Shown: positions 5,718 to 54,182 of the stretch, piece by piece | Position numbering within the stretch: position 1 is the stretch's first letter | Layout: each line of letters begins with the position of its first letter | Virus record (IMG/VR): IMGVR_UViG_3300027782_000037 | Coordinates: 32,001-96,000 of that record | Strand: one strand, 5' to 3' | Source: a virus | Length of the DNA stretch: 64,000 nucleotides | Notes under the pieces: generated by a model | What the model was told of the DNA's origin: nothing | The model's database searches: none | The model's input: only the letters and a program-made list of their open reading frames with translations | Translations under genes and position numbers: made by a program

Positions 5718-6437
5718 TTAGTTAATCGTGTAATAGAGCTCCAATCGTCGCCACCATACCTGTTCCCAGCGATCAAAGTCTTTGGGGTCCAGTATAAATT
5801 CCTGATATTGTGGGCGTTCTAACGGTTCCATGGTAGTGGGATCTACAGTGGGTTTTACACACATTAGTACTACACCTTTACGGATTTTTGTTCCGTAAAC
5901 CTCGTTGTGTGCCAGAGCATACGCCACTAGCTGTATGAAATAATCATCAATCCACTCTATTTTTTTGGGTTTATTTGTCTGTTTGTAGTCAAGTATACTT
6001 TCATCGCCCAGGTGTATACCACATCCATCTGTAGTACCGGCATACAATTGTGGGAAATATAAGGGAATTTCTACTCCCCAAATTTCATTGACGTTTTTAA
6101 GTCCATCTTCAATAACAGTCTGTGCCATTTTATGGCTTGCCCAACTGTAGGGATTAGATCCCCGTTCGCTTATTACACCATTGCGTATGTAATCTTCAAG
6201 ATATTTGTGCATCCTGGTACCGCGATTAGCAGCTTCTGTAGTAATAGCTTGGGCACGTTCTGTGCCTATGGAATTGCGCCAATTTTGTAGGGCTTGCTTT
6301 TTTTCTGCTGGCTGAGTGGCACTAAGAACTGTTGTTACCGAAGGGACTCGTCGTCCGTCTGGAGTTTGATAAAGTCTTTTTCCGGATTCATCAGTAGTTC
6401 GTGATAGGTCTTTATAATCAAATTTAGGTATATACAT
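5718..6437 (-). CDS. PD-(D/E)xK exonuclease (RecB/MGME1-like)
   Basis: PSVTTVLS, RGTRMHKYLE, YAGTTDG, ILDYKQ and QLVAY motifs. Confidence 0.85.
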   Translation of the reverse strand: MYIPKFDYKDLSRTTDESGKRLYQTPDGRRVPSVTTVLSATQPAEKKQALQNWRNSIGTERAQAITTEAANRGTRMHKYLEDYIRNGVISERGSNPYSWASHKMAQTVIEDGLKNVNEIWGVEIPLYFPQLYAGTTDGCGIHLGDESILDYKQTNKPKKIEWIDDYFIQLVAYALAHNEVYGTKIRKGVVLMCVKPTVDPTTMEPLERPQYQEFILDPKDFDRWEQVWWRRLELYYTIN

Positions 6438-6443
6438 TATACT

Positions 6444-6472
6444 AGTATAACTTAGTGGAAAACAACCATCAA
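6444..6472 (-). promoter_or_regulatory. Sigma70-type promoter, predicted leaderless, for the exonuclease
   Basis: TTGATG-17 nt-TATACT-6 nt-ATG(6437); no SD. Confidence 0.7.
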
Positions 6473-6473
6473 G

Positions 6474-6800
6474 TTATATGGTGAAACTTTCTCCGCAACC
6501 GCAACGGGCTGCTTCTTTGGGATTGATAAAATCAAAGCCTTCGTTAAGACCTTTGCGTACCCAATCCATTTTCATACCTGCTAGATAGGGCATGTCTTTT
6601 GGGTTAACCCAAATGTCGACTCCATGACAGTTGTAGTTGTCATAGTCTTGTACTGTATGTAGCTGATCTACGTATTCTAATTTGTATGCCAATCCACTGC
6701 ACCCAGTGGTACGAACACCAATTAATAAACCAAGCCCAGTAGGTCTCTGTGCAAGATTAAATTTAACTTTGTTTGCTGCCGCTTCTGTTAATGTTATCAT
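6474..6800 (-). CDS. iscA: A-type Fe-S cluster carrier IscA (HesB family)
   Basis: MITLTEAAA, RTTGCSGLAY, GLNEGFDFINP, CGCGESF. Confidence 0.95.
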   Translation of the reverse strand: MITLTEAAANKVKFNLAQRPTGLGLLIGVRTTGCSGLAYKLEYVDQLHTVQDYDNYNCHGVDIWVNPKDMPYLAGMKMDWVRKGLNEGFDFINPKEAARCGCGESFTI

Positions 6801-7288
6801 CGTTTTGCCTTTTTAGCTGCCATCATAAATTTTAAATCACTTACGTAATCTTTAAATACTTTTCCATCTAAGTGATCTATTTCGTGTAGGAAACATTTAG
6901 CATCAAGTTCACTGAATACGGTACTGTGTTCCTTGCCTTGTATATCTTGCCATCGAGCATACACAAACTTGGGTCTAGCGACAGTTAATTCAACTCGAGG
7001 AAAACTTAAACAACCTTCTCTATGTTCCCACAGATCTTCGGATAATTTACTTACCGCAGGATTTACCAGCACTAACTGTTGGCCAGCATATACACCGTTT
7101 TGCACATTCATCGCTATAGCACGATATGTGACGCCTATTTGATTTGCAGCAAGCCCCAGCGCCATCTGACTATTCATAGTGTCAAGAAGATCTTGACTTA
7201 TGTTTTCAACTGGCGGATTGTTAAAGTCCCACGGTTGGCACGGTTGTAGTAGTATGGGGTCCGGCCATCTCTTGATTGGTAGTATCAT
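6797..7288 (-). CDS. def: Peptide deformylase
   Basis: GLAANQIG, EGCLS and HEIDHLDG motifs. Confidence 0.96.
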   Translation of the reverse strand: MILPIKRWPDPILLQPCQPWDFNNPPVENISQDLLDTMNSQMALGLAANQIGVTYRAIAMNVQNGVYAGQQLVLVNPAVSKLSEDLWEHREGCLSFPRVELTVARPKFVYARWQDIQGKEHSTVFSELDAKCFLHEIDHLDGKVFKDYVSDLKFMMAAKKAKR

Positions 7289-7658
7289 GTTTGCTTATAT
7301 AATCTTTTACTGCTGCTTTGATCGCATCTTCTGCGAGAATTGAGCAATGGATCTTAACGGGCGGAAGTGCCAATTCTGCGGCAATGTCTGTATTTCTAAT
7401 TCGTCCAGCATCCGCAAGAGATTTTCCTTTGACCCACTCAGTGACCAGCGATGAACTTGCAATTGCTGATCCGCAACCATATGTTTTGAAACGTGCGTCC
7501 GTAATAATGCCATTCGTCACCTTTATTTGTAACTTCATCACATCTCCACATGCAGGTGCTCCCACCATGCCTGTGCCAACGTCATCATCATCTTTAGCAA
7601 AGGACCCTACGTTTCGGGGGTTCTCATAATGATCTAGTACTTTTTCGCCGTAAGCCAT
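7221..7658 (-). CDS. iscU: Fe-S scaffold protein IscU with an approximately 20-aa C-terminal extension overlapping def
   Basis: VLDHYENPRNVGS, GAPACGDVMKLQI, FKTYGCGSAIAS, LPPVKIHCS; all cluster ligands present. Confidence 0.97.
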   Translation of the reverse strand: MAYGEKVLDHYENPRNVGSFAKDDDDVGTGMVGAPACGDVMKLQIKVTNGIITDARFKTYGCGSAIASSSLVTEWVKGKSLADAGRIRNTDIAAELALPPVKIHCSILAEDAIKAAVKDYISKHDTTNQEMAGPHTTTTVPTVGL

Positions 7659-7667
7659 ATAACTTTT

Positions 7668-7784
7668 TTATTTACCTTTAATTAATCCAGCAAGTTTTGC
7701 TTGTATGCTTTTAGCAAAGTCTGGTTGTGGGAAATTCCATCCAATAAATGCGCCTACTGCAAGCCATAATAATGTTTCAAACAT
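7668..7784 (-). CDS. 38-aa small membrane protein (MFETLLWLAVGAFIGWNFPQPDFAKSIQAKLAGLIKGK), below the ORF-track cutoff
   Basis: Strong SD AGGAGA 6 nt before ATG(7784); hydrophobic N-terminus and basic tail; fills the intergenic gap. Confidence 0.8.
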   Translation of the reverse strand: MFETLLWLAVGAFIGWNFPQPDFAKSIQAKLAGLIKGK

Positions 7785-7824
7785 GATAACTCTCCTTTTG
7801 TATTACTGTTGTACTTATACTTGA

Positions 7825-8181
7825 TTAATTTGGTACCAATATAGTAACATAACAGTTACAATTTGCATCTAAGATTTGTTCGTGATGATATCCATAGGGA
7901 GGCATAGGAGGAGGGGTATATACTGGGTTGGGCTGCACATACACAGGGGCTGGGGCATAGTACGGTGCCGCCGCCGCTGCGCCAACGAGTCCACCTATAA
8001 TTAATCCACCGATAGCAGGGGCGACCCATCCGCCTCGATAACCACCACCATTATAGCTATAACTATTGTAGTTATTATGGCCACCTCGATAGCCTCCATT
8101 TCCACCGTTGCGGTATCCATGTTGAGCCAAAGCTGAAGTTGCTGTAATTGAAAGTAATACCGTTAGGATAAGTTTTTTCAT
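7825..8181 (-). CDS. Secreted Gly/Tyr/Pro-rich protein
   Basis: Sec signal peptide MKKLILTVLLSITATSALA, GGY repeats, a glycine-zipper-like segment and PVYVQP repeats; SD GGAG. Confidence 0.75.
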   Translation of the reverse strand: MKKLILTVLLSITATSALAQHGYRNGGNGGYRGGHNNYNSYSYNGGGYRGGWVAPAIGGLIIGGLVGAAAAAPYYAPAPVYVQPNPVYTPPPMPPYGYHHEQILDANCNCYVTILVPN

Positions 8182-8212
8182 GTTAAAACTCCATTAAGTG
8201 AACGACAAGTTA

Positions 8213-8241
8213 ATTATATTTAGTTTTTAATTAATTGTCAA
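8213..8241 (-). promoter_or_regulatory. Perfect-consensus sigma70 promoter overlapping a late-type TAAATA
   Basis: TTGACA-ATTAATTAAAAACTAAA(17 nt)-TATAAT. Confidence 0.85.
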
Positions 8242-8259
8242 GTAGTTTAGCTGAATTAT

Positions 8260-11137: not shown

Positions 11138-11138
11138 A

Positions 11139-15263: not shown

Positions 15264-16212
15264 GTTGTCTTTTCCTTAATTCAATTTTAATTCTGCTGGT
15301 CTCTTTAGATTGCAATATAGTTATTAATGTTGCAATCTTACCTAATTTTATCACTGCGTCATTTACATCTTTAATACCTTCTGGCCAGTCGGGAATACTA
15401 ACTGCCCAGTTTAATTCTACTGCACGATCCACTAATTCCATGCCCGCGATATCCTGATCCGGGACCACGATTATTTCTTTACCTATATTGCGTATTAACC
15501 TAGCTTGTGCATCGCTTACTGTATTATGCATTAATGCTAATCCGTCAATACTTAATGCATCAAATATACCTTCTGTTACGATTACATATTGCCAATCTTG
15601 TTGTTGCAGGTCAGTACCAAATACATATCCTGGCTGAAAATAATTGATCCATACCGGTTTACGATCATCTAAAAATCGTACCGTACTACCAACTAATGTG
15701 TTATTATAGGTAAATGGAATAATAACCCCGGTCCGTGCGCCCTTAGTTGAGCTAATCATATAAGGATAGTCAATCGGTGCTTGCCTGCGGCGTAAGTAAT
15801 TCCAAATATCTGTATGCTCGGGAGTTACAAATTCTACACCTCCCATGTCTCTTTCTTCAAAATGTATGCCTAATATAGCATCAGCAGTTCGTTGTCTATC
15901 ATCTATCATGCCCTCAATACTACGATGCCGCAGACTTTCTAATTGAATTCTGTCGATTTCTTCTGCAGGCACATTGAGCCAAGATAAAAATTTACGTGCT
16001 TTGATGCTAAGATTGCGTCCTAATATAAAACTAGCTGTAAAATTACAATTAAAACAATGATAACTCCAGCCCTCGATACTGCCTTTAAATCCGCCACGTT
16101 GACGCCGATCTACGCTTTCACCATTATGTATGCAACAAGGTCCATTAAATGACACCCAGCCTGAGCTGGATTGTTTTCTTTTTGCAGGTAAGAAGGAGAT
16201 GATGTCAATCAT
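15241..16212 (-). CDS. DNA primase (T4 gp61-like)
   Basis: Zn-binding CCIH...HCFNC; TOPRIM VTEGIFDA and VPDQD; KDVND; overlaps the helicase gene. Confidence 0.9.
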   Translation of the reverse strand: MIDIISFLPAKRKQSSSGWVSFNGPCCIHNGESVDRRQRGGFKGSIEGWSYHCFNCNFTASFILGRNLSIKARKFLSWLNVPAEEIDRIQLESLRHRSIEGMIDDRQRTADAILGIHFEERDMGGVEFVTPEHTDIWNYLRRRQAPIDYPYMISSTKGARTGVIIPFTYNNTLVGSTVRFLDDRKPVWINYFQPGYVFGTDLQQQDWQYVIVTEGIFDALSIDGLALMHNTVSDAQARLIRNIGKEIIVVPDQDIAGMELVDRAVELNWAVSIPDWPEGIKDVNDAVIKLGKIATLITILQSKETSRIKIELRKRQLVKRLRN

Positions 16213-16217
16213 GCTAT

Positions 16218-16247
16218 AGTTTAGCAGATGTGACTACGCTAAATCAA
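16218..16247 (-). promoter_or_regulatory. Sigma70-type promoter (extended -10), predicted leaderless, for primase-helicase
   Basis: TTGATT-18 nt-TAAACT, with TG at -15/-14, then 5 nt-ATG(16212). Confidence 0.6.
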
Positions 16248-16249
16248 CT

Positions 16250-17398
16250 TTATCGGTATAATATGTTTGTAATATAGCCAGTTGATATAATGGGAAATGC
16301 ACCTTGGTTGGCAGGGGGAACAGGATATGCCCCAGGATTAATTCCGCCAGCTGGAATAGGCCAGTAACCTGCGCCGCCGTCTAAAATATTAAATCCAGTG
16401 ACAACACCATATTGATTTATTATGGATTCTACTACAGCACCAGATCCATTGCCCAAAATATCAACCTTAGGCGGGGCCAGATATCCAGCGCCACCATTTT
16501 GCACTACCATGCCGGTTAATACACCGTCGGTACAGACAGCATACGCCGATGCCGGAATCCCTGGAGGATTTGGAGTAGAGAAAAGACTATTATTAAAACA
16601 TAGTCGAAGTAATGGATACCATCCATATACGTTCATATGAATGGTGCCGGTTTTGTTCAAGTAAGTAGTAGATTCTGTGACGTTAATCCAAATACTTTCG
16701 TAATTTTGCGCCCATTGTGCTTTGATGGTTCCGGTATACCCTATCAAGTCCAGTTGAATTGTAGTTATAAAGTTTCTGGGTTCGATAAAACTTGAGAAAA
16801 ATTCTGTATTCTGATAGTTGTTGAAGAACATACTGCCATTTCCACCATAATACCAATTACCGGCCCACCCAGGATAATTTTGATATCCTGCGCCATCCAA
16901 TGAAGTCTGCGCACTTATTTTTATAGTGGGTACTGTACATGGGATAGATGGTACAAATCTTGGGAAAACAGAGTTAACTAAATCAATTGGCGCACGAGCT
17001 CCGGCTTGTGCATTTGTAAATACTGCCTGATTTAGATTGCCACTTTGCACGCTAATAGAATAGTTAGCAGGTTGAGCTACTAACTCCAGTGTATCCTGTG
17101 CCGGAACATATACTTTCACTTGCCCAGTTGCAGCATTGAGTATGGTCATTGGTTCTTGTAATAACAGAACTGTTCCAGCAGTATTTGTCACACGAAACGT
17201 AAAGGTACACCCGTTTACATTAACCGGCTTCTCATCCTGGTTAACAAAGGAAAATAGGAGTACATTATCTACCCCTAAATTAAGAGTTAGTCTTTTAGCG
17301 TACACAGGGTCGTACCTCATAGAAAAGTATTGCCCACTGCTGTCGAGCAATAGCACTTGTGTTCGTTGCTGATAAAGGTAAGCGGTGGTTGAATACAT
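16250..17398 (-). CDS. Virion structural protein (baseplate-like, beta-rich)
   Basis: BppU-like N-terminal Ig-type region, NGGAGY..PP.V repeats; late promoter at 17405-17410. Confidence 0.6.
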   Translation of the reverse strand: MYSTTAYLYQQRTQVLLLDSSGQYFSMRYDPVYAKRLTLNLGVDNVLLFSFVNQDEKPVNVNGCTFTFRVTNTAGTVLLLQEPMTILNAATGQVKVYVPAQDTLELVAQPANYSISVQSGNLNQAVFTNAQAGARAPIDLVNSVFPRFVPSIPCTVPTIKISAQTSLDGAGYQNYPGWAGNWYYGGNGSMFFNNYQNTEFFSSFIEPRNFITTIQLDLIGYTGTIKAQWAQNYESIWINVTESTTYLNKTGTIHMNVYGWYPLLRLCFNNSLFSTPNPPGIPASAYAVCTDGVLTGMVVQNGGAGYLAPPKVDILGNGSGAVVESIINQYGVVTGFNILDGGAGYWPIPAGGINPGAYPVPPANQGAFPIISTGYITNILYR

Positions 17399-17467
17399 AC
17401 ATCTTATTTAGCTAAATTTTGAAAGATGTTTTTGAACATAAATATTCAGAAGCGATAACTACATTAG

Positions 17468-19986: not shown

Positions 19987-20461
19987 TCTCGCATGTGCGA
20001 CTTATGTCTTTAACAAAATATACACAGTCGGGCTTCTTACCTTCGTTTATAGGAACACATAATAATTGACCATTTTTAAGTTTGGGTGCATACCAAGTTA
20101 CATCTTGATATACATCTAAAATTTCCACTTCCAAAAAACTTGGCCTAAAACTAGTTAGTGGGTTAAATTGAAATGCCTTAAAACCTCGATCATTGAGTGC
20201 TGACAAAGGTATTACTTCCAGGTCACCCGCCTCGGGATCACCAATTAATAACTGCCAATCAACGGGCATACGTACTCTATACTCACCTATTCGTAATACC
20301 AGTGCAGGACTATTAAAACTTTCCAGGAAGATTAGTGGAATATAATGGTAGTCGGGATCTTGTGGATTGGAATTATCCAAAATACTAAATCGCATATCAT
20401 CTATTTCTTCTGGTAGGTGATTTAAGTCATATGGTTCGTTGTCTAGGGTTAATATTTTCAT
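19961..20461 (-). CDS. Hypothetical all-beta protein, possibly a Hint (intein-like) fold
   Basis: Beta-strand spacing resembles Hint blocks, but there is no Cys1 and no terminal His-Asn. Confidence 0.45.
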   Translation of the reverse strand: MKILTLDNEPYDLNHLPEEIDDMRFSILDNSNPQDPDYHYIPLIFLESFNSPALVLRIGEYRVRMPVDWQLLIGDPEAGDLEVIPLSALNDRGFKAFQFNPLTSFRPSFLEVEILDVYQDVTWYAPKLKNGQLLCVPINEGKKPDCVYFVKDISRTCEIVNYNKAF

Positions 20462-20467
20462 ATTGTT

Positions 20468-20496
20468 ATTTTACTTTATATAGCCGCATATAGCAA
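20468..20496 (-). promoter_or_regulatory. Sigma70-type promoter, predicted leaderless, heading the operon that ends in mini-DnaE
   Basis: TTGCTA-17 nt-TAAAAT-6 nt-ATG(20461). Confidence 0.7.
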
Positions 20497-26945: not shown

Positions 26946-26960
26946 AATATATTATTTATG

Positions 26961-36724: not shown

Positions 36725-37225
36725 TCATTTGTCTTTTTGTGCTCGATCCCCAATTAGGCGATCCAGCAGGTCATTGCGGGTTAATACCTGCCCCTGAGCT
36801 GTTGGTAAGTTATCCAAATTGCCGGTTCGCTTGGCTGCGTCTTGATCCAACTTCAGTTTCCTAAGCTGTAAATCAATCATCTTTAATTTCTTGTTTAATT
36901 TGGTTGTTTTTGCTGTCAGAGCGTGCCCCAGCATAGTACCAGCTACTGCAAATAGCTCTGCAGAGTAGCGACTATCCACATTCATACCTAAATCACTTAA
37001 ATCTTGATAGCTTTGTTTAGCCAGGTCTGCTATATCGTCCAATTCTCTATCAGATGCCATCAAGTCCCGTATTGCGGGTAACGCTTCGTCAATCTTATCT
37101 ATAGTGCTGTCAATGTTAACTATCGCGGTACGTGTTTCTTCCATGGTCATGTTTTCCACAACTGGAATATCTTCTGAATCTTCCAGTTGGTCGAAACCAA
37201 AAAGCTGCTCTAATTTTTTTGTCAT
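36725..37225 (-). CDS. Helical protein, possibly terminase small subunit (gp16-like)
   Basis: Size and long helices with SRYSAELF; TAAATA-5 nt-ATG. Confidence 0.4.
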   Translation of the reverse strand: MTKKLEQLFGFDQLEDSEDIPVVENMTMEETRTAIVNIDSTIDKIDEALPAIRDLMASDRELDDIADLAKQSYQDLSDLGMNVDSRYSAELFAVAGTMLGHALTAKTTKLNKKLKMIDLQLRKLKLDQDAAKRTGNLDNLPTAQGQVLTRNDLLDRLIGDRAQKDK

Positions 37226-37257
37226 ACTGTTATTTACAGTATTTTACGGGAGACCAT

Positions 37258-39340: not shown

Positions 39341-39997
39341 TTAGAATGCGTTAGTATTTACAGTCCCTGTCCCAGTAGCAAGAGTGCCCACTGTACGGGA
39401 GATTGTCTGACCAACGCCGTTGGGCTCACCAGCAGTATTAACTTGAATAGCATTGTCAAAGGTTATGGTCAATGCAATTTTTACAGCTTCGGATGTATTA
39501 TAATCCATTTTACCGTAGTCAGCAGATTTCAAATAACAGCCAAGTACGTCCCATTCTTCCAATACGGTTGGCTCATTTGCGCCATTGCCACCATCAAGGA
39601 CTTGTAGTTGTATTGTGAATTTATAATCGATTGCAGATGCAGCTGAACTTTGTTCCATAAAATCTAATTGTTTCTGTAGCTGTTCACCAACTAATCGACT
39701 TATATTGCCCTGTGCATCATCACGTAATGAACAGGTCATATCACCCCATGAATGTTTTCCAGCCAGTTTAATTGTACTGTTGTAAATTGGTAATTTAATT
39801 TCAGTGAAATCAACTTTTGGTCGGGAAATATCCATAACTTGTTTAGATAATTCCGTAGTAGGTGTACTAACTCCGAAGTTATTGAAGAACACACGGAAGC
39901 GGTACGACAACTTGGGCATTAACATACCCTGTGTTGATGCACTTTGCCCGTCTGCGCCCAGTGGAACAGTCATGTTAGTTAGTGAGGATGTTGCCAT
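39341..39997 (-). CDS. Tail tube protein (gp19-like)
   Basis: YRFRV, SRPKV, KLAGKHSW, WDVLGCY, LTITFD; follows the sheath gene; own late promoter 40019-40024. Confidence 0.85.
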   Translation of the reverse strand: MATSSLTNMTVPLGADGQSASTQGMLMPKLSYRFRVFFNNFGVSTPTTELSKQVMDISRPKVDFTEIKLPIYNSTIKLAGKHSWGDMTCSLRDDAQGNISRLVGEQLQKQLDFMEQSSAASAIDYKFTIQLQVLDGGNGANEPTVLEEWDVLGCYLKSADYGKMDYNTSEAVKIALTITFDNAIQVNTAGEPNGVGQTISRTVGTLATGTGTVNTNAF

Positions 39998-40030
39998 TTC
40001 TTAATCTCCGATATACTTTATTTAGTTAAT

Positions 40031-43000: not shown

Positions 43001-43693
43001 TTCAGTACTACCCAGTAATACCCATGTATTATATAAAGAATTGATTCTAGAATCGTTTGATTGCGTAGATGTCGGACCACCACGTTTAAAGTAAACGGGA
43101 TTGGAAGTATATGTTGCTGTTACCGCATAATTTCCAATACTACCATAACTTTGTAGCGGCACCGATGAACTAGGATTTAAATATTCAACGTCTGTTATTA
43201 CAGTTGGAATTTGGTTAGTAAATGTGCTGGTAACATCATTCCATTGGAACAATCCCCAGGCGGTATTTGCTGTGTCTAACCAATAAGAACCACCAACTGG
43301 ATTACCCGTTGGGCGAGTTAAACTGGCACTAAGCGCAGCCAGGTCAATATCAGCACGTAGCACATAACATTGATTAGTAACACCAAGAGCAGAATAAGCA
43401 GCTAATAAGCCGTATTCATTAAGCTCGTATCCATTGATAGGAGTACCATTTGTAGTGGTATAGAAGAATGGGACTCCGTAGTTTGCGGACAATGCACGTT
43501 GGCTAGATGCCAAGAACAATTGATTAGCATTGGCGGCCGTTGTACCAGGAGCGACCCCTGTACCATCTGAAGATAGTTTATTTGCCGCGGTGGCAATAAC
43601 CATCAGCGGCACTGAATTTGTTGCGGCGGGTAGGTACTGACTTTGGTCAACTACCGTAACTTTTACACCTGGGGATACTAATGTGCTAGACAT
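40058..43693 (-). CDS. Tail sheath protein (gp18-like) with large insertions
   Basis: LVSPGVKVTVVDQS, PWLAPAGTRRG, INPI, FGNKT, DRINVSRL, FEPND, EPVKAVEFIYI. Confidence 0.95.
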   Translation of the reverse strand: MSSTLVSPGVKVTVVDQSQYLPAATNSVPLMVIATAANKLSSDGTGVAPGTTAANANQLFLASSQRALSANYGVPFFYTTTNGTPINGYELNEYGLLAAYSALGVTNQCYVLRADIDLAALSASLTRPTGNPVGGSYWLDTANTAWGLFQWNDVTSTFTNQIPTVITDVEYLNPSSSVPLQSYGSIGNYAVTATYTSNPVYFKRGGPTSTQSNDSRINSLYNTWVLLGSTEWQSSWATVQGVNTPSSITAAETFIVNGTVITVPASPNNTVTGIANAITSAALVGVYAGNVGGQLSIYADDTAAGVTIAVTGASGSSGTATLTFATQASAPYAVGSKISVSNMSPAGYNGEYTVTACTTTSVSYDSSTTAAYVSGGRVGAPTGTVVIAAGTGTVLTTLGITAGTNYIPFYQASPSYQVPTWSQGGTTAIGVTGSVWQKTNAVNKGANLVMKKFSATLGIFVVQPVTNYADNALAIYGLDPSGGGENISAGTLYGRYDPFDNGTAGFTIYERYVAGPTIVTGDETSQTFVSGNEFTIIATQPETASNTTVTCTISGTTPSDFIAAVSSAAIPYVSATIASTGAIVFTHSAGGDIVLTNVTGTPITTAGFTTSTFLCSQNYVDGINAGIRLSNWVSDPTFTYVASNSTPNENPATGTYWYYSDPTQVDIMIQSNGEWVGYQTVTSDARGYNLTLCNAAGPIISTDAPTTQTDQSQSPLVYGDLWVDSNDLENYPALYRWENIEGVPQWVQLNNADATESSGIIFADARWAPNGTTDPVSDALPTIESLLTSNYLDPDAPNADLSPTGILLWNTRRSGFNVKTFELDAWNNQAYPTYDWSSTTAYTIGQYVQYSGVVYACILNSTNNVPSSSPTYWSIQTVTNTWVSATGNRSDGAPYMGRHAQRAIIVAAMKASLDSNTQIREEQNAYNLIAVTGYPECALNVRALNNEINNVAFAIIDTPLRLTPNNIAIWASNNGGLGLPTGDGNLATGDSYSATFYPSCKTTDLTGNEAVTYPSHMMIRTIIRSDEVSYPWLAPAGTRRGLVDNAFQLGYLNPTTGAFETLSVGQGLRDVLYPRNINPITFIPGVGITNFGNKTLQGTNTALDRINVSRLVCYLRTRLNQIGKQYLFEPNDQITRTEISNTIVSLMIDLVAKRGLYDYLVVCDNTNNTPTTIDQNQLWVDIAIEPVKAVEFIYIPLRIENTGAIAAQAAA

Positions 43694-43792
43694 AATTTAA
43701 ATCCTTATAATTAATATACAATATTTAGTTCATAACTGAAAAAGACACTGATAACCGTACCCTACTTAGTAGGTTTTGTGGTAAATATCAGT

Positions 43793-44140
43793 ATGAGACC
43801 TATTTGTAACGTCTGCAATCAGCGGCCCAGAGCTGTGGCATACCATAAACCTGATGGTAGCGTGCAATATCGACGACTTTGTGAATATTGTATACGGCGT
43901 GGCCGTAAATTGAAACCTGCGGTACCCAAATGGACGCAGGCAGGATATAAAAAGAAGGCGGTGTGTGACCGATGCGGCTTCAGATCAAGGTGGGCCGCTC
44001 AGCTATTAGTATTTCACATGGATGGGAATTTAAATAACAATAAAGTTAGCAATTTAAAAACTATTTGTCAGAACTGTGTGGTGGATGTGGCTAAGTCTGA
44101 TCTACCTTGGCGGCCTGGAGATCTTGAATCAGATGTTTGA
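43793..44140 (+). CDS. Zn-binding HNH-like protein (start corrected to 43793)
   Basis: Four CxxC pairs; HMDGNLNNN..NLKTICQNC; TAAATA-5 nt-ATG. Confidence 0.7.
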   Translation: MRPICNVCNQRPRAVAYHKPDGSVQYRRLCEYCIRRGRKLKPAVPKWTQAGYKKKAVCDRCGFRSRWAAQLLVFHMDGNLNNNKVSNLKTICQNCVVDVAKSDLPWRPGDLESDV

Positions 44141-45202: not shown

Positions 45203-45723
45203 CGTATTTTTTTAATACCTATCTGTCGAAAAGTTTCTTGCAACATATCTATTTGCCGCTGGCAATCTTTTAAAGCATGATGTTCCGCGGGAGGTTTTGG
45301 ACAATCAGGCCATAGACTGTAGATGGTGCGAGCATCGCGAATTTTGTAATATTGCCAAGGAATGTGTTTACCACGGCTTTTAAAAGCATGTTCCAGGATT
45401 GTGGCGTCATAAGTTGGGCCATTCATCCAGATAAAATCAGCGTGCCAACATATTTTATGTAGCCCATCTAGGGATTCTTCCAGGGAAACACGATTATCTT
45501 CCGCAAATGCCTCGGCAGCGGCTTGTGGTTGAGTAGCCCACCATTCAACAGTGGCATCGTCAATTATTCTATCATCTTGGCTTTCAATGGTAACACGAGA
45601 ATAGAAATCTTCTTTAAGATATCCCCGGCCAAATGGATCAAAGGCTTGTGCTGCTATGGTTAAAATAGCAGCAGCTGGTGTAGTTGCCAGTCCCTCGATG
45701 TCGATCATTATATGTTTTGCCAT
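45199..45723 (-). CDS. DEDDh 3'-5' exonuclease (DexA-like)
   Basis: IMIDIE, NGPTYD, RDART, HHALKD. Confidence 0.85.
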   Translation of the reverse strand: MAKHIMIDIEGLATTPAAAILTIAAQAFDPFGRGYLKEDFYSRVTIESQDDRIIDDATVEWWATQPQAAAEAFAEDNRVSLEESLDGLHKICWHADFIWMNGPTYDATILEHAFKSRGKHIPWQYYKIRDARTIYSLWPDCPKPPAEHHALKDCQRQIDMLQETFRQIGIKKIR

Positions 45724-45729
45724 ACAATA

Positions 45730-45758
45730 AGTATAGCAAGATACTAGATATTAGTCAA
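45730..45758 (-). promoter_or_regulatory. Sigma70-type promoter (extended -10), predicted leaderless
   Basis: TTGACT-17 nt-TATACT, with TG at -15/-14, then 6 nt-ATG(45723). Confidence 0.75.
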
Positions 45759-47027: not shown

Positions 47028-48170
47028 TTACCAAGCCTTTAGGATAACCAAATTATCATTGCCACGCCCATTCCACTTGATTTCTGTGGCCTTGATATCC
47101 TTAAATGCCTTTCTAGCAGCAGGTTTACCCACGCTCATAATGGCCTTTAATTGCTCCTTGGGCTTGCGCAGAGTCTTTTGTACCGTGGTAACAGCATCAA
47201 ATGCAAGTAGGGTCGCTCCTTTGATGGTGAAAGTACCTGCATGTGAATCTGCGGTAACGTGTACCAATTTACGTTTAGCAGTATCGTATAAGAACGCTTC
47301 TGTTGCACCAACCAGGCTAACCGGAGATTGTGATTTAAGTCCTAATTCTGCAAATTCCTTAAGGTATTTAAAATTCATTGCAATACGCTCGGGACTCTGC
47401 GCCTTTTTAGCACGTGGCTTACGTTCTACTTTCTTCAGAGAAATATAGGATTGGCAGTCAGCCAGGAGAGCTTCACAGAATTTTACACAGTTTCGCAGTT
47501 GTACCTTGCTAAGGTGGCTATAGCCTTCCACCAGTTGAGAATCCTTGCCTTCCACAACTTCTTCCAGTTCCGCTAACCGCAATTTCCACGGGGCGGTGAT
47601 AAAACCAATCATGTTAGGTGCAATATTCATACCACGAATTAAGGGCATATGCTTGACGTTGGCTGTCATTTTTGCGCCAGATTCAATAAAATCATCGTAC
47701 ATAGCTTCAAGTTCTGCTGCACATTCCGATGCTTTTTCACGCAGATGATCCTGGATTGTCAGCTTTTTCTGGGCAGCAACATCCTGACTTGATGCAGCAA
47801 CTTCTTGTTGTTTAGCAGCCAATAGTTTAGTAAGATGCTCATCCAAGATAGATTGTTCATGTTCGTTGAGAACCAATCCCATAAGCGACATTCTGCAGAT
47901 CCAGCCGGTAGTGGTTAATACGTGGGCGTCGGAGATGCCGCGTAACAGTTTCACTTCCCGAGTTTTCTTGTGCCATTCCAGGTAATGGATAATCATTTCC
48001 CTAGCATCCTTACGGGTGCAGGAATAATTATACCAATTAAGTGCTTTACTTAGGGCACCTACTCGATCTTCATCCTTGGGTTGCGTAACCCATTCTGGCT
48101 CGGGACCGGTAAATTTGGCGTCCTCGCCTCTATTGATAATACGTTTAAGTGTGGGTAGTGTCTTTGCCAT
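47028..48170 (-). CDS. Conserved hypothetical protein of T4-like phages
   Basis: ALNWYNY...FLYDTAKRKL...KTLRKP...NGRGN; SD AAGG. Confidence 0.75.
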   Translation of the reverse strand: MAKTLPTLKRIINRGEDAKFTGPEPEWVTQPKDEDRVGALSKALNWYNYSCTRKDAREMIIHYLEWHKKTREVKLLRGISDAHVLTTTGWICRMSLMGLVLNEHEQSILDEHLTKLLAAKQQEVAASSQDVAAQKKLTIQDHLREKASECAAELEAMYDDFIESGAKMTANVKHMPLIRGMNIAPNMIGFITAPWKLRLAELEEVVEGKDSQLVEGYSHLSKVQLRNCVKFCEALLADCQSYISLKKVERKPRAKKAQSPERIAMNFKYLKEFAELGLKSQSPVSLVGATEAFLYDTAKRKLVHVTADSHAGTFTIKGATLLAFDAVTTVQKTLRKPKEQLKAIMSVGKPAARKAFKDIKATEIKWNGRGNDNLVILKAW

Positions 48171-48200
48171 GATGTATTGTACCTTTAAAGTTAAAAAATG

Positions 48201-48482
48201 TCAACGTAATAGTAATGCAAGAGTAATGTGTTGTTCCAAACTACTCAACAGAATGTCAGTTGATACTAATAAATCTCGATATCGGTTGGTTTCCTTTTTG
48301 AGGCGTCTACATTCTACCGACTCCCTACTTATTTCCCGCATAACTGAATCAATATTTACGATCATTTTCTTCAGATCCCGCAGAGCCACTTTGTTTTTTA
48401 CCCTAACCAGCTGATTTTCCGCTGTTGATAATCGTTCCATCAAATCATGTTGTCCGTAATTGAAAGTGTTTATTTCATCCAT
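48201..48482 (-). CDS. Hypothetical helical protein (start corrected to 48482)
   Basis: The ATG lies 6 nt after a perfect -10 element; the track's start falls inside the promoter. Confidence 0.7.
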   Translation of the reverse strand: MDEINTFNYGQHDLMERLSTAENQLVRVKNKVALRDLKKMIVNIDSVMREISRESVECRRLKKETNRYRDLLVSTDILLSSLEQHITLALLLR

Positions 48483-48488
48483 ATAGTA

Positions 48489-48517
48489 ATTATACATATT
48501 TGGGTATTAAATGTCAA
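48489..48517 (-). promoter_or_regulatory. Perfect sigma70 promoter, predicted leaderless; back-to-back with a + strand late promoter (TAAATA 48531-48536)
   Basis: TTGACA-17 nt-TATAAT-6 nt-ATG. Confidence 0.85.
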
Positions 48518-48543
48518 ATGGTATTTTAGCTAAATACTCGACT

Positions 48544-49896
48544 ATGCCTAGACTCAGCCTATACCGCCCAAATCGAACCTACGACTATCAATTTTTGGAT
48601 AGAACCATATCCGAAAAGTATACTGTTGGTGGCGTCGACGTATTTGTACACAAATACATGGGGCCGATTGTGGACACAACCGACAATCCCGGCAACGCCG
48701 ATGCCACTTTGCCCGTGTACACTTCTGAAAATCCTTTGTTTATTGAGGACTTATTGCTGCTGGAAAACCGAGACAGAGCGTACGACCCCAACATTTACAT
48801 CATGCGGGGCGTCTATACACACCAGGATATCAATTTTGATTTGACTCAATTTGGATTGTTCCTGCAGAACGACACGCTATATATTACGTTTCACTACAAC
48901 GATATGATTGATTCGTATGGGCGTAAATTGATGACTGGTGACGTGCTGGAATTACCAAATTTGAAAGATTACTATCCCTTAAACAGTAATATTACTAGAG
49001 CATTGCCCAAATATTATGTTATACAAGGTGCTGATTACGCTACTGAAGGCATGAGTCAAACGTGGTTGCCACACACTTGGCGAGTCAAGGCCACTCCCAT
49101 GGTGAACGCACAAGAATACAAGCAGATCATGGATCAAACACTGATGCCGGACAATATCTGGGATAACGGAAACTTTTACCCCCAGGGTATGGTAGTGAAC
49201 AACGGGGGAAAATATTATGAAGCCACACTCAATGTTCCTCCCGGTACTGACATTACCGATCCTAAATACTGGGCGTTGATTGAGAAACCAACTACCCTAG
49301 GTGACGTCAATTCAACACGCAACAAAGACCTACAGATCAATGATGCGCTGGTAGTACAGGCTAATATAGATGTGCCTCAGTCAGGTTACGACAATACTGC
49401 GTTTTATATATTACCCACTACCCCCAGCGGAGAACCCAGCAGTGAAGGGCTAAGTGCTGATCAAACTGGGCCCACTGTAGATGGAACGGAATCAGGTGAA
49501 GGTACAACGCCACGTAGTTTTGGATGGACCATGGGATACTTGACTGGTGATAACAAGGCGCCCAACGGACTGCCAGTTACTCCCGGAGCCAGCTTCCCGT
49601 TAGTGCCCGCAGCCGGTGATTATTGCTTGAGAATGGATTATTTTCCTAATCGACTGTTCCGTTTCAACGGCACAGCGTGGATTGCCATCAGTGATGATGT
49701 GCGTACACCATTAGATTGGGGTCCGGAAAATCTTACACAACGCAGTTCGTTTGTCAATAATACATATACTGTACCCACTAAAGATCAAGGTAATATTCCT
49801 TCCCGTCAGTCGTTATCCGAATTACTTAAACCACAAGCTGATAATGGTGACCAAGGTGGAAACTTACCACCTAACCCAAGACCTCCAGGTCGATAA
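48544..49896 (+). CDS. Neck or head-closure protein (gp14-like) with a CBM5/12-like insert (start corrected to 48544)
   Basis: GGVDVFVHKY, DLTQFGLFL, GDVLELP; insert WDNGNFYPQGMVV...KYW. Confidence 0.75.
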   Translation: MPRLSLYRPNRTYDYQFLDRTISEKYTVGGVDVFVHKYMGPIVDTTDNPGNADATLPVYTSENPLFIEDLLLLENRDRAYDPNIYIMRGVYTHQDINFDLTQFGLFLQNDTLYITFHYNDMIDSYGRKLMTGDVLELPNLKDYYPLNSNITRALPKYYVIQGADYATEGMSQTWLPHTWRVKATPMVNAQEYKQIMDQTLMPDNIWDNGNFYPQGMVVNNGGKYYEATLNVPPGTDITDPKYWALIEKPTTLGDVNSTRNKDLQINDALVVQANIDVPQSGYDNTAFYILPTTPSGEPSSEGLSADQTGPTVDGTESGEGTTPRSFGWTMGYLTGDNKAPNGLPVTPGASFPLVPAAGDYCLRMDYFPNRLFRFNGTAWIAISDDVRTPLDWGPENLTQRSSFVNNTYTVPTKDQGNIPSRQSLSELLKPQADNGDQGGNLPPNPRPPGR

Positions 49897-49907
49897 GGAG
49901 AATTAAA

Positions 49908-51308
49908 ATTCAAAGTTATTTCTACGACGGACAAATACGCCGCTACCTAACACAATTCGCCCGTATGTTTTCAGGATTCCAAGTGGAATTCGGGCGCAAC
50001 GAAGCTGGTGCAGCCAATACAGGTGACACATTATACCGTGTGCCGATTAGATACGGCGACAGTACACGGCAAGCTCAGACTATTTTACAAGAGAATAGTG
50101 CTAGTAATATGCCAGCTACTCCCTTGATGACATTTTGGATTACAGGCTTGGACTTTGATCGTCCTCGTATGCAGAATCCCACGTATGTGGACAACAAATC
50201 TATTCGTCAACGCGAATATGATCCCACCACCGGCTTGTATGAAACAACACAGGGCAATGCATTTACAGTCGAACGGTATATGCCTGCACCATACAAACTA
50301 TCCATCAATCTTGATATTTGGACATCAAATACCAATCAGAAGATGCAGATTTTAGAACAGATTTTACCCTTGTTTAACCCCAGTTTGGAAATACAAAGTA
50401 CAGATAATTATTTGGACTGGACTAGTTTAAGTATTGTGGAATTAGTATCGGCTGGGTGGAGTAGTAAACAAATTCCCGTAGGAACAGAAGATCCTATTGA
50501 GATCAGCACTATTAAATTTGTACTGCCAGTATGGTTATCCTTACCCGCCAAGGTCAAGAAGCTGGGCGTGGTGGAAACTATTATTGCTTCAATATATGAC
50601 GGATCAGGTGATTTAGTCAACGCTATCGCCGACAGTGATCTACTACTGGGCACACGTCAGTACATTACGCCTTTTGGTTATCAAGTAGTGCTAATTGGCA
50701 ATAAATTACAAGTACTGACACAGTCTGCGGTGGTTGATTCGACCAATAATCAGTTGACACCGCCTGATCCTGTTGAGCCCAGCAATGTATTATGGACACC
50801 AGTTTTAAATATGTATGGTGGAATTCGGCAGGGAATTAGTTTGATAGCACTACGTCAGGAAGATGGTAGTCAAGTCTATGGTACTATAACTTTTGATCCC
50901 ACTAATGACCAATTTCTACTGTATTCCGTAATCGAAGACAGCGTTCCTGCCAATACACTTGCACCAGTTAACTCGGTAATTAATCCTCGTGTCAGTGGTC
51001 CCGGTCAAGGATTGCCTACTGCTGCGGCTGGTCAACGTTATCTATTAACTGAATCTACCGGCAGTGACAATGGGTACGCACAAGCCTGGGCAGGTTCCAT
51101 GGGACAGATATTAGTCGCCCATCCCAATGACATTATAGAATATGATGGCGCACAATGGATAGTTTCTTTTAATGGTGACTCTAGTCCTGTAAATACTCAG
51201 TACGTGGCCAATATAACTACAGAGATCCAATATCGGTGGACAGGTTATAATTGGGTCAAGTCATATCAAGGGTTATATCCAGGTGGAGAATGGAGTCTTA
51301 TAATTTAA
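49908..51308 (+). CDS. Tail sheath stabilizer/terminator (gp15-like), probable ATT start
   Basis: SD AAGGAG-7 nt-ATT giving (M)QSYFYDGQIRRYLTQFARMFS; RVPIRYG, MPAPY, QILEQILPLFNP. Confidence 0.85.
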   Translation: MQSYFYDGQIRRYLTQFARMFSGFQVEFGRNEAGAANTGDTLYRVPIRYGDSTRQAQTILQENSASNMPATPLMTFWITGLDFDRPRMQNPTYVDNKSIRQREYDPTTGLYETTQGNAFTVERYMPAPYKLSINLDIWTSNTNQKMQILEQILPLFNPSLEIQSTDNYLDWTSLSIVELVSAGWSSKQIPVGTEDPIEISTIKFVLPVWLSLPAKVKKLGVVETIIASIYDGSGDLVNAIADSDLLLGTRQYITPFGYQVVLIGNKLQVLTQSAVVDSTNNQLTPPDPVEPSNVLWTPVLNMYGGIRQGISLIALRQEDGSQVYGTITFDPTNDQFLLYSVIEDSVPANTLAPVNSVINPRVSGPGQGLPTAAAGQRYLLTESTGSDNGYAQAWAGSMGQILVAHPNDIIEYDGAQWIVSFNGDSSPVNTQYVANITTEIQYRWTGYNWVKSYQGLYPGGEWSLII

Positions 51309-51739: not shown

Positions 51740-52386
51740 CAGACAAAGTCCCTATGATCCATGGTGCGGGTGTTGGGTAGAGATAACCAATCGGCGGGCA
51801 TATTATGTTTATTACCCACAAAAGTAAATATTGTGTTGCTGTATGACTCTACAATCCCTGTAACTTGTCTTATCCAGTCGCTAGTTCCCGAGGGCATTTC
51901 TTTGTTGTACCCTAGGGTATAAATTTCCGTGTGTCCGTCAAATGCTGCAAGGTAAATGGGTAATACTTCCGTACATATTGCGGGCTGTAGTGGAATCAAA
52001 TAAAATTCGCCAGGTTGACGAATACAATTTCTAGAGGTGGTATATACAATATTACTGGCGGAATATTGATTTTCCACCAAGGGCTGTAGGTTGTTGATGT
52101 CAGTATCTACTGTAAAATCCAATCGCATCTGCTGTGCAATTTTGGCTGTCCCATATGTCTGTAGCTTTAAACTACCCAGCAACCCACCACGATGAGTTGA
52201 TAATACTCGATGATTGAATTTTTCTTGGTCATCATCACTGCCTATAGCCACGGCACGACCCGAGATATGTTGATTAACAATCGGGTTATCAATCCATGCT
52301 TGGGTTATCTGTTTTTTACCACCAGAAAATTTAGTTTCTGTAATTACCAACTCGCCTGGATAATCCTTTCTGTATCTAGCTTCCAT
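51724..52386 (-). CDS. Hypothetical protein with a Rossmann-like glycosyltransferase/MptE-like pattern, apparently degenerate (start 52386)
   Basis: AVAIGS...LQTYG...YLAAFDGHTEIYTLGY. Confidence 0.5.
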   Translation of the reverse strand: MEARYRKDYPGELVITETKFSGGKKQITQAWIDNPIVNQHISGRAVAIGSDDDQEKFNHRVLSTHRGGLLGSLKLQTYGTAKIAQQMRLDFTVDTDINNLQPLVENQYSASNIVYTTSRNCIRQPGEFYLIPLQPAICTEVLPIYLAAFDGHTEIYTLGYNKEMPSGTSDWIRQVTGIVESYSNTIFTFVGNKHNMPADWLSLPNTRTMDHRDFVCHCDV

Positions 52387-52387
52387 A

Positions 52388-52768
52388 TTATTGAATATAC
52401 TCAACCCATGATAATGTTGCTTCATCCCAATAATATAAATTTCCATCAGTGGGATATGGAACTGGTGACGACCATAACCAAGTTGGGGCTGATATACTCC
52501 AACTAGGATAAGGTTGTGGAGCATAAAATACATCATTTATGTCGTCATATGTGTATCCAATTCCAGCATAATTTGCCCGTAATGCTTTAGATTGATCAGG
52601 GCCAGGTTCTCTGGGATAAACATTTGGAACGTAATAAATTCCACCTTCAGTATTATAACTGGTTTGTACCCAAAGTTCACCTGTTGATGAGTACGATGAA
52701 GATTGTTCTTCAGTAACTGACATTACTTCAGTTACTATGTTATTTTCTACTTTAGCGTAATATGGCAT
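52388..52768 (-). CDS. Tail-fibre-associated small protein (start 52768)
   Basis: YAKVENNIVTEV, WVQTSYN, RANYAGIGYTYD, PQPYPSW; follows a Gly-rich fibre gene. Confidence 0.7.
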   Translation of the reverse strand: MPYYAKVENNIVTEVMSVTEEQSSSYSSTGELWVQTSYNTEGGIYYVPNVYPREPGPDQSKALRANYAGIGYTYDDINDVFYAPQPYPSWSISAPTWLWSSPVPYPTDGNLYYWDEATLSWVEYIQ

Positions 52769-52784
52769 TTTAATTTCCGTATCT

Positions 52785-53855
52785 TTATGCTGTGTAAACA
52801 GTATTAGCAGTAAATCCCAGCACAATAGCTGTGCCTGTGTTGGCGTATGTATACGTTCCGCTTACATTACCATTACCCGGATAATTAGCGATAGGAATAG
52901 ATATAACTATAACACCAGATCCGCCAGCACCGCCTGTGCCGTTGTTAGCACCACCACCACCACCACCGGTGTTGACTGTGCCTGCTACTCCGGTATTTCC
53001 CCCGCCACCGTTACCGCCTGTACTAGTTGTCGCTGATCCTGCTGCTCCGCCGCCTGCTAGCCAGTAGTTACCAGAGATTAATTGGCCAGCTGTTGAACCT
53101 GGAATCTGATTAATTATGCCAACTCCACCTGACGCTGTACTTGCTCCATTTGCACCTACACCACCTGCACCACCACCGCCGCAGAATACTGCACTGGAGT
53201 TTGATCCACCATTAAAACCTTGGCCAGGAATTCCAGGACTTAATGCTCCATACGAGCCATAGTTATTTTGACCGCCTAACCCGCCGCCAGAACCTCCTAC
53301 GTTTGCCCCTGGCCCAGCGCCGGATCCACCACCACCTGATCCGCCAATTGCTGTGATTCGTGATAATGATCCTGTTCCAAATGTACTATTTGATCCAGCT
53401 GTGCCAGGACCCGATGATGTGCCACCTGCACCGCCTGCTCCTATGTTGGCAGTATAAGCAGTACCTGGATTTAATGTGTATGCTGCAAAAGACGCGACAC
53501 CGCCTGCTCCGCCACCGCCACCTAAAAATGCACCACCGCCTCCACCACCTGCGACTACAGCCACAATTATATTGTAAGCTGCTGCGCCGGTATTAATATT
53601 TGCCCACGCTCCGTTGGTATACGCTTCTAGTAAGTTTGATGTGTTACTATATCTAATCATACCGTTAGCAGGACTTGCGGGTCGTTGTGCTGTATTACCC
53701 ACGTTTAGAGTAATAGCACCTGTGCTGTTTGCCGTAATATTTTGACTATTATTGATATGTAATGCTGCTGTTCCGTTAGTTTGAAACTGTAAATTACCAC
53801 TGTTATCTACAGTTTCTACTAAACCTGAACTATTTGCGTTGATTATTGTTGTCAT
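52785..53855 (-). CDS. Glycine-rich tail fibre or adhesin
   Basis: N-terminal anchor (GNTAQRP...GMIRY) followed by VAGGGGGG...GGSGVIVI polyglycine domain. Confidence 0.75.
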   Translation of the reverse strand: MTTIINANSSGLVETVDNSGNLQFQTNGTAALHINNSQNITANSTGAITLNVGNTAQRPASPANGMIRYSNTSNLLEAYTNGAWANINTGAAAYNIIVAVVAGGGGGGAFLGGGGGAGGVASFAAYTLNPGTAYTANIGAGGAGGTSSGPGTAGSNSTFGTGSLSRITAIGGSGGGGSGAGPGANVGGSGGGLGGQNNYGSYGALSPGIPGQGFNGGSNSSAVFCGGGGAGGVGANGASTASGGVGIINQIPGSTAGQLISGNYWLAGGGAAGSATTSTGGNGGGGNTGVAGTVNTGGGGGGANNGTGGAGGSGVIVISIPIANYPGNGNVSGTYTYANTGTAIVLGFTANTVYTA

Positions 53856-54130
53856 GATATATTAGCCCATGCTGAATTTATATATCCTTCAAGTTTTGAC
53901 GTAGTGGTATTGTATCTAATCATACCATTTGCTGCGGGGGAAGGACGTTGTGCTGTATTACCAACTGGAACTGTAAATGCACCTGTTGAGTTGAATATTA
54001 TGTTTTGACTTGTGTTAATTGTTAATGCTGTGTTACCATTTGTTTGAAGTGTGAGGTTACCAGTGGCATCTCCTGATTTGGTAAGAGTGCCAACAGTTGC
54101 GTCTGATTGTAAGTTTATAATTGATGCCAT
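53852..54130 (-). CDS. Stand-alone fibre anchor module, paralog of the N-terminus of the neighbouring gene
   Basis: Shares QTNG..AL.IN.SQNI..NSTGA..VGNTAQRP..ANGMIRY..AWANI; TAAATA-5 nt-ATG. Confidence 0.75.
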   Translation of the reverse strand: MASIINLQSDATVGTLTKSGDATGNLTLQTNGNTALTINTSQNIIFNSTGAFTVPVGNTAQRPSPAANGMIRYNTTTSKLEGYINSAWANIS

Positions 54131-54182
54131 ACTGGTATTTAGCTGATATTAGCTGGATTAATTATTACTGCCTTATACAAAA

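Follow-up and report, generated by a model that had tools for sequence, protein, structure and literature searches.

The DNA analysed here (the window) is a stretch of 64,000 nucleotides (nt) corresponding to bases 32001-96000 of a 157,276-bp virus contig from IMG/VR (IMGVR_UViG_3300027782_000037; CheckV completeness 45%), and its features of interest are promoters whose -10-type element lies only a few nucleotides before the ATG of a gene. We called 67 genes in the window (the calls are rough and some small genes are missed); its large open reading frames (ORFs) match ribonucleotide reductase, helicase, tail sheath and virion proteins. Four relatives from the same clade, designated G001-G004, were used for comparison, with the contig itself as G000. 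Because the related contig G001 measures 317 kb at 89% completeness, and in view of the gene matches, the phage is an uncultured jumbo myovirus of roughly 350 kb.

A first-pass annotation had listed eleven starts in the window with a promoter element directly before the ATG and no Shine-Dalgarno (SD) sequence, five of a sigma70 type and six preceded by TAAATA. We read the 70 nt before each claimed start directly and recomputed all coordinates; the eleven starts proved to be as described, and a twelfth, absent from that list, was found at 48170 (TTGACA, 17 nt, TACAAT, 5 nt, ATG). In the five listed sigma70-type (early) sites, all on the minus strand, the -35 hexamer begins with TTG, the spacer measures 17-18 nt, and the -10 hexamer is TAnnnT, located 6 nt before the ATG at 6437, 20461, 45723 and 48482 and 5 nt before it at 16212. 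The six early sites, with 48170 included, match the sigma70 consensus at 8 to 12 of 12 positions. In the late class, TAAATA precedes the ATG by 5 nt (37225, 43793 and 54130), 6 nt (17398) or 7 nt (26945 and 48544). With no more than 4-7 nt between promoter element and ATG, there is no space for an SD at any of the 12 sites. The features and their counterparts in the relatives are collected in the table.

Table. Promoter-abutting starts in the window, with SD-led starts for contrast (window coordinates)
Feature	Position	Strand	Arrangement	Orthologs
Early promoter, exonuclease gene (239 aa, phrog_298)	6435..6472	-	-35 6472-6467, 17-nt spacer, -10 6449-6444, 6 nt, ATG 6437	Kept in G003, not in G001
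Early promoter, DNA primase gene (323 aa, phrog_47)	16210..16247	-	-35 16247-16242, 18-nt spacer, -10 16223-16218, 5 nt, ATG 16212	G001: better -10 hexamer, 6 nt before ATG
Early promoter, 166-aa protein (phrog_11279, residues 1-154 on profile 1-154)	20459..20496	-	-35 20496-20491, -10 20473-20468, 6 nt, ATG 20461	
Early promoter, exonuclease gene (174 aa, phrog_255)	45721..45758	-	10/12 consensus, TG before -10, 6 nt, ATG 45723	-10 hexamer 5-6 nt before ATG in all four, G001-G004
Early promoter (11/12), 380-aa protein (phrog_11903)	48168..48204	-	5 nt, ATG 48170	Kept in G001, G002, G003; SD leader instead in G004
Perfect early promoter (12/12), 93-aa protein	48480..48517	-	6 nt, ATG 48482; divergent from late promoter of 48544	
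Upstream ATG of the 48482 gene	48497	-	Inside -10 hexamer	Not conserved
Late TAAATA, 382-aa virion-type protein	17396..17410	-	TAAATA 17410-17405, 6 nt, ATG 17398	Kept in G001 (6 nt), G003 (5 nt)
Late TAAATA, 664-aa virion structural protein	26943..26958	-	TAAATA 26958-26953, 7 nt, ATG 26945	7 nt kept in G001-G004
Late TAAATA, 166-aa protein	37223..37236	-	TAAATA 37236-37231, 5 nt, ATG 37225	4 nt in G001, G002, G004; strong SD leader in G003
Late TAAATA, HNH endonuclease gene (115 aa)	43782..43795	+	TAAATA 43782-43787, 5 nt, ATG 43793	Kept in G002 (5 nt), G004 (4 nt)
Late TAAATA, 450-aa virion/neck-type protein (phrog_11591, profile starts at residue 3)	48531..48546	+	TAAATA 48531-48536, 7 nt, ATG 48544	
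Late TAAATA, 92-aa protein	54128..54141	-	TAAATA 54141-54136, 5 nt, ATG 54130	N-termini too poorly aligned to compare
Contrast: late TAAATA, SD-led tail sheath gene	43691..43727	-	28-nt leader, SD core AAGGA, ATG 43693	
Contrast: late TAAATA, SD-led tail tube gene	39995..40024	-	21-nt leader, SD core GGAG, ATG 39997	
Strong SD then AAA and ATT start, gp15-like tail sheath stabiliser	49894..49910	+	ATT 49908; PHROG profile aligns from residue 2-3	

The assignment of these ATGs as start codons is supported by several observations. For nine of the 12, no in-frame ATG, GTG or TTG lies upstream before a stop codon is reached, and the in-frame upstream ATGs of 48544 and 48482 fall within the neighbouring promoter and are not conserved in the relatives. 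The 48544 and 20461 products are matched by their PHROG profiles from the first residues onward, and protein sequence is conserved from residue 1 among orthologs. In an independent consensus scan, the three highest-ranked sigma70-like sites between 45000 and 49000 were those of 48482, 48170 and 45723. Three of the starts (48170 and 48482, early, minus strand; 48544, late, plus strand) lie within 380 bp, at 48170-48546, and this cluster is conserved in most relatives. At 48482/48544 a gap of 13 nt separates the early -35 hexamer from the late TAAATA on the other strand, so the early and the late polymerase may compete there; of the 50 leaderless-type loci in the 48544 family described below, 37 retain this opposite-strand pattern.

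The existence of two promoter classes, as proposed in the first-pass annotation, was borne out for both. The contig encodes a late sigma factor of the gp55 family at contig positions 141620-142588 on the minus strand (phrog_12791, E 5e-69; phrog_234, E 2e-22), and gp55-family sigma factors are also present in G001, G002 and G004; the sigma70-type hexamers, in turn, are conserved among relatives. The late sigma gene itself has a near-consensus sigma70-type promoter followed by a leader, an SD and a GTG start (contig 142588-142650, minus strand, about 46.6 kb past the window end), a design opposite to that of the leaderless early genes. TAAATA precedes the portal, neck, baseplate, sheath, tube and fibre genes, and the sigma70-type sites precede exonucleases, the primase and genes of unassigned function. 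Since TAAATA also occurs 18-39 nt upstream of SD-led virion genes (among them sheath, tube and 46997), it behaves as a promoter element and not as a signal bound to the start codon. In the pooled late sites the TAAATA core is invariant, and the two preceding bases are not conserved.

From this geometry we infer the expected point of transcription initiation. The sigma70 -10 hexamer spans positions -12 to -7, so a gap of 6 nt would put +1 on the A of the ATG, and 6 nt is the sharp mode of the early class. The T4 late box spans -13 to -6 (PMC2988020), so a gap of 5 nt in the late class would likewise put +1 on the A of the ATG; 5 nt is the commonest late spacing (33 of 79 sites pooled from the five clade genomes). 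The earlier proposal that the spacing suits transcription beginning at the ATG thus agrees with the prediction for the 6-nt early and the 5-nt late sites.

The late spacing is far from what base composition would give. On the whole contig, 13 of the 130 copies of TAAATA lie 5-7 nt before an ATG opening at least 60 codons, with none at 0-4 nt and two at 8-12 nt; for the other permutations of the same bases the figure at 5-7 nt is 40 of 3406, or about 1% (binomial p 6e-9). The analysis repeated in G001 gave 20 of 189 for TAAATA against 71 of 4895 for the other permutations (p 8e-12). The 28 G001 sites at 4, 5, 6, 7 and 8 nt number 5, 9, 4, 7 and 3, respectively, and the distribution there is bimodal: hardly any sites fall at 9-16 nt, and the second mode, at 17-28 nt, coincides with SDs. 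When all hexamers lying 4-8 nt ahead of first ATGs were counted without bias, the enriched ones were SD-type words and TAAATA only (30x in G000, 39x in G001), and the same count in T4, PA5oct and Atu_ph07 returned SD-type words only, with no enrichment of TAAATA. Among the 15 permutations of its bases, TAAATA also has the lowest count on the whole contig and the second lowest in G001, which suggests selection against stray late promoters. The enrichment of the late motif in a histogram of motif-to-ATG distances, which the first-pass annotation had put forward as a check, is thereby established.

For the early class the outcome of the same check depended on the stringency of the pattern. A strict scan, which accepted sigma70-type matches with at most two mismatches, gave 26 of 616 matches at 5-6 nt when four clade genomes were pooled, against 31 in 15 flanking distance bins (p 2e-10), and only 1 of 534 in PA5oct and T4; in G001, four strict matches lie at 5 nt and 11 at 6 nt. 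The degenerate pattern TTGnnn/TAnnnT plotted against distance on this contig alone, however, did not separate clearly from scrambled controls, and a loose scan with three mismatches allowed was noisy. The early class therefore rests on match quality and conservation. Across G000-G004 the spacing peaks are sharp, at 5-6 nt for the early and 4-7 nt for the late class.

Conservation was assessed for one gene of each class, using upstream regions from IMG/VR. The distinct sequences among the matches listed numbered 62 for the late gene 48544 and 52 for the early gene 20461. In the 48544 family, whose products are 66-96% identical (about 68% between the G001 and the 48544 products), 50 of the 62 upstream regions keep TAAATA 4, 6 or 7 nt before the start, and the bases in between vary. 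In the 20461 family, 47 of the 52 have the -10 hexamer 5-6 nt before the ATG; 46 of these carry both hexamers and exactly 6 nt, and one has 5 nt. Both hexamers and the length of the spacer (16-18 nt) are conserved in this family, and the sequence of the spacer varies. Orthologs of most of the leaderless-type genes keep the design across G001-G004, and a few switch to SD leaders. Two gene-family searches, each with at least about 600 matching stretches, showed that the clade is very common in IMG/VR, and the predicted arrangement is conserved in hundreds of relatives.

Start codon usage follows the arrangement. All 50 leaderless-type regions of the 48544 family and all 47 of the 20461 family use ATG. 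The 12 exceptions in the 48544 family are mostly SD-bearing and start with ATG (five), ATT (three), GTG (three) or TTG (one); the difference between 50 of 50 and 5 of 12 is significant (Fisher p 1.6e-6). The five exceptions in the 20461 family comprise one perfect promoter located 9 nt before the ATG and four SDs with ATT (three) or TTG (one). Taken over both families, 11 of the 17 leadered variants start with ATT, GTG or TTG, and TAAATA often remains upstream of the inserted leader in those relatives that gained an SD leader. A 5'-terminal AUG is needed for leaderless initiation in most bacteria, and the exclusive use of AUG fits this need.

The module composed of a strong SD and an ATT start takes the place of the leaderless ATG in three members of the 48544 family (L009, L024 and L071) and in three of the unrelated 20461 family (L280, L319 and L321). 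The ATT starts are real: in the 48544 family and at 49908 no canonical in-frame start lies upstream of them, and one is reached downstream only after 17-38 codons of the conserved N-terminus. A general use of ATT starts across the genome was ruled out, since there is about one per genome.

SDs are otherwise common in the window. As the first-pass annotation had noted, abundant structural genes keep them, exemplified by the tail sheath (43693) and the tail tube (39997), each led by an SD leader behind TAAATA. Its further suggestion, that downstream genes rely on ATGA/TAATG coupling, holds for part of the genes: stop and start overlap by 4 or 1 nt in 11 of the 67 called genes, but seven of these 11 also bear an SD, and most genes have one (an SD core of at least 4 nt precedes 38 of the 67).

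These data bear on an alternative in which the transcripts start farther upstream, and TAAATA and the -10-like hexamers are A/U-rich enhancers of translation or plain AT-rich sequence. Sequence before start codons is AT-rich in general, and the degenerate sigma70 pattern did not beat its controls on one contig, both of which would be expected under this alternative. It does not explain, however, why permutations of the same composition are not enriched, why TAAATA is found 17-40 nt upstream of SD-led genes and often stays upstream of an inserted SD leader in relatives, or why a complete -35 hexamer, at 16-18 nt, accompanies the early sites and is conserved in relatives. A matching late sigma factor is encoded, and strict ATG use fits leaderless initiation. 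We therefore regard this alternative as very improbable.

Instead, many first genes of transcription units are probably made as leaderless or nearly leaderless mRNAs, which would serve as low-output starts tied to their promoters. Early in infection, host RNA polymerase with sigma70 would open the promoters whose -10 element ends near the ATG; later, polymerase carrying the phage gp55-type sigma factor would open the TAAATA promoters. With the -10-type element ending 4-7 nt before the ATG, transcription would begin at the A of the ATG; the 7-nt late class may have its start 2-3 nt before that. The 5'-terminal AUG would presumably be bound directly by ribosomes without SD pairing, as in other leaderless mRNAs.

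Two functions may be served by such starts. The first would be a low-output start for proteins needed in small amounts. The leaderless-type genes encode the portal, a neck-type protein, a gp25-like baseplate wedge, two homing endonucleases, exonucleases and the primase, and the SD-led genes encode the sheath, tube and fibres. In relatives, the evolutionary alternative to the leaderless ATG would be a strong SD combined with a weak start codon, often ATT. The division between gene types and the repeated replacement by an SD with a weak start fit a low-output start. The second function would be to tie translation to the gene's own promoter. Several of the leaderless late genes follow a same-strand gene at a distance of 15-52 nt; on read-through RNA their ATG would be internal and devoid of an SD and hence poorly read, so that their translation may depend on their own promoter.

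Four observations weigh against this explanation or limit it. First, the division of genes behind the low-output and insulation rationale is taken from PHROG function labels, and the rationale can be no firmer than these predicted functions. Second, the 7-nt late sites (pooled from G000-G004; 26945 and 48544 in the window) have an A at -5 and A(-3)C(-2)T(-1) in common in 15-17 of 19 cases, and the 5-nt late class has no such conservation; the motif may mark a start at -3 with a leader of 3 nt, or a second recognition register. Third, at 7658 and 11074, both on the minus strand, TAAATA lies exactly 10 nt before the ATG and no SD is present; these sites form an intermediate class that belongs to neither the leaderless nor the SD-led mode. 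Fourth, the relatives are not phylogenetically independent, and the p-values and counts obtained for the two loci overstate the number of independent events; the exceptions are spread over several lineages.

A precedent for promoters placed right against the start codon throughout a phage genome, and in several temporal classes, is found in the Thermus phages phiYS40 (YS40) and Lalka27a, for which 5' ends were mapped and most transcripts are leaderless. Three differences separate them from the phage studied here. They infect Thermus, a lineage whose mRNAs are typically leaderless; their late promoters, which are not of the gp55 type, have another -10 element; and in our case, where 5' ends are predicted, about a third to a half of the recognisable promoters are of the leaderless type and SD-led genes predominate. 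Another precedent is cI of phage lambda: transcription from the sigma70 promoter PRM is reported to begin at the A of the AUG, and this 5'-terminal AUG is where translation starts (PMC10491246). Lambda cI and similar cases, however, are single regulatory genes of temperate phages, whereas the present arrangement involves dozens of lytic-cycle genes, two promoter classes and a large clade.

The predicted late promoters resemble those of T4 (gp55, TATAAATA) in having a -10-type box without a -35 element and in the gp55-family sigma factor. They differ from the T4 box in that conservation is confined to a 6-nt core, TAAATA, with the two preceding positions variable. The position relative to genes also differs: none of the 32 copies of TATAAATA in T4 lies within 12 nt of the ATG of a long ORF, and 24 lie at 13-34 nt. 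In T4, e, soc and I-TevI are translated from late transcripts only, which amounts to a similar result, but this is achieved by hairpins that hide the ribosome-binding site and not by leaderless RNA. PA5oct, Atu_ph07 and the Rak2-like phages share the phrog_12791 late sigma factor with the clade; no leaderless peak of either class was found in PA5oct or Atu_ph07, and cyanophage Syn9 has no TAAATA peak at 4-8 nt.

The same late design is present in the Pelagibacter phage HTVC008M (NC_020484), which encodes gp55. TAAATA is followed by 5 nt (often GTAnn) and ATG at 12-17 deposited coding sequence starts, e.g. 11972, 16007, 18916, 18943, 19456 and 49760, with a sharp peak of TAAATA at 5 nt (12 sites). 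The genes served in this way encode the tape measure, a gp2-like end protector, head closure, tube cap, baseplate wedge and head-tail adaptor proteins. HTVC008M differs from the clade in its much smaller genome (147 kb, GC 33%), in the lack of a clear sigma70-type leaderless peak and in the lack of a clear second, SD-led mode. As predicted from genome sequences, the trait is common to a freshwater jumbo clade and a pelagimyophage.

In the literature on leaderless mRNAs combined with jumbo phages, late promoters, cyanophages or SAR11 we found no description of this arrangement. The PA5oct study describes dependence on host polymerase and TTGAC/TATAATA promoters and is silent on leaderless RNA (PMC7318152), leaderless transcripts are absent from phiKZ (PMC8244752), and the 5' untranslated regions of AR9 measure 26-491 nt (PMC5312081). 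The paper on phage Melnitz lists late promoters without remarking on a leaderless arrangement. Leaderless mRNAs are thus known and their phage-wide use is documented for Thermus phages, and we found no report of them for gp55-driven late promoters, for jumbo phages of the PA5oct/Atu_ph07/Rak2 group or for pelagimyophages.

The affinities of the phage were examined through its structural proteins. The sheath (35-42% identity) and the portal (47-55%) are nearest to the group of PA5oct, Atu_ph07, Phosso, XaC1 and Rak2-like phages, and a megablast of 20 kb against the phage collection gave no match; on these comparisons, PA5oct and Atu_ph07 are the nearest cultured relatives. The jumbo phages closest to this sheath and portal infect Proteobacteria. 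A ClpX-based scan of bacterial genomes for the host returned only scattered matches in metagenome-assembled genomes, with identity of at most 47%. Bacteroidetes as hosts were ruled out by the TTGACA/TATAAT-type promoters and the common SDs.

The phage carries a gene for the ribosomal protein bS21 (Pfam PF01165, 62 bits) at contig positions 19853-20074 on the minus strand (L163:1453-1674), about 12 kb before the window start and directly downstream of a ClpX-like ATPase gene; bS21 genes are also present in G001 and G003. The encoded protein is 40-51% identical to counterparts in many genomes of one sampled bacterial class. Membership in the bS21 phages of Chen et al. 2022 was rejected, since those form a different clade (GC 31-34%, many tRNAs, Bacteroidetes hosts). 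Relative G001 has a tmRNA gene (L116:14202-14640) and no tRNA genes; tmRNA genes are described in the Melnitz paper for phage Melnitz and its relatives. HTVC008M also carries bS21 (PMC9723584).

A rival account of the arrangement is that host ribosomes read 5'-terminal AUGs efficiently, and that the phage follows host usage and saves intergenic space, with no regulatory role. Leaderless mRNAs are translated efficiently in Deinococcus-Thermus, Actinobacteria and some Alphaproteobacteria. The occurrence of the late design in HTVC008M, whose host has a streamlined genome, is in line with this account, as are the bS21 and, in G001, the tmRNA that the clade shares with the HTVC008M phage group. Thermus phages, too, have mostly leaderless transcripts, like their hosts. 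Within the one genome, however, the choice of start follows gene type, abundant virion proteins keep their SDs and most genes use SDs; in addition, switches between the leaderless and the SD-led state often bring in weak start codons, which points to tuning of output. We consider a host default possible, yet clearly less probable than low-output, promoter-tied starts.

The function proposed in the first-pass annotation was that leaderless starts sustain the synthesis of phage proteins when normal initiation is impaired; such impairment of SD-dependent initiation could come from shut-off imposed by the phage or from host defence. In general, 70S ribosomes read leaderless mRNAs, and these mRNAs withstand some of the blocks that stop canonical initiation; together with the phage-encoded bS21, this is compatible with such a role. 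The most abundant proteins (sheath, tube and fibres) depend on SDs, however, so the phage cannot afford to lose canonical initiation. Searches of the five clade genomes for IF3_C and S1 domains gave no homologue, and no other initiation factor was found in them; bS21 was the only hit. Furthermore, the early leaderless genes would be expressed before any phage product could act, and the gene types fit low, promoter-linked output better. A bypass of shut-off therefore seems unlikely as the function of these starts.

One further possibility concerns the state of the ribosome. Initiation factor 3 (IF3) opposes initiation both at leaderless AUGs and at AUU. Since the same genes alternate between a leaderless AUG and a strong SD with AUU, both opposed by IF3, their output may depend on the initiation state of the ribosome. 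The clade may thus run a set of genes on initiation modes disfavoured by IF3, with an output that would track the ribosome state and would perhaps be shifted by the phage bS21. We offer this as a speculation with only a slim chance of being correct.

The arrangement has practical consequences for the annotation of such phages, as prediction of starts from SDs will misplace them (for instance, 48511 would be chosen over the supported start at 48544), and the pattern is widespread in environmental data. A cultured phage, HTVC008M, makes the prediction directly testable. For the biology of the clade, the alternation of one and the same gene between two states, a leaderless AUG and a weak start behind an SD, amounts to a natural experiment on the stoichiometry of phage proteins and on translation tied to the promoter. 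If the link to IF3 were true, these starts would constitute a phage-wide translational switch and not merely a set of weak starts.

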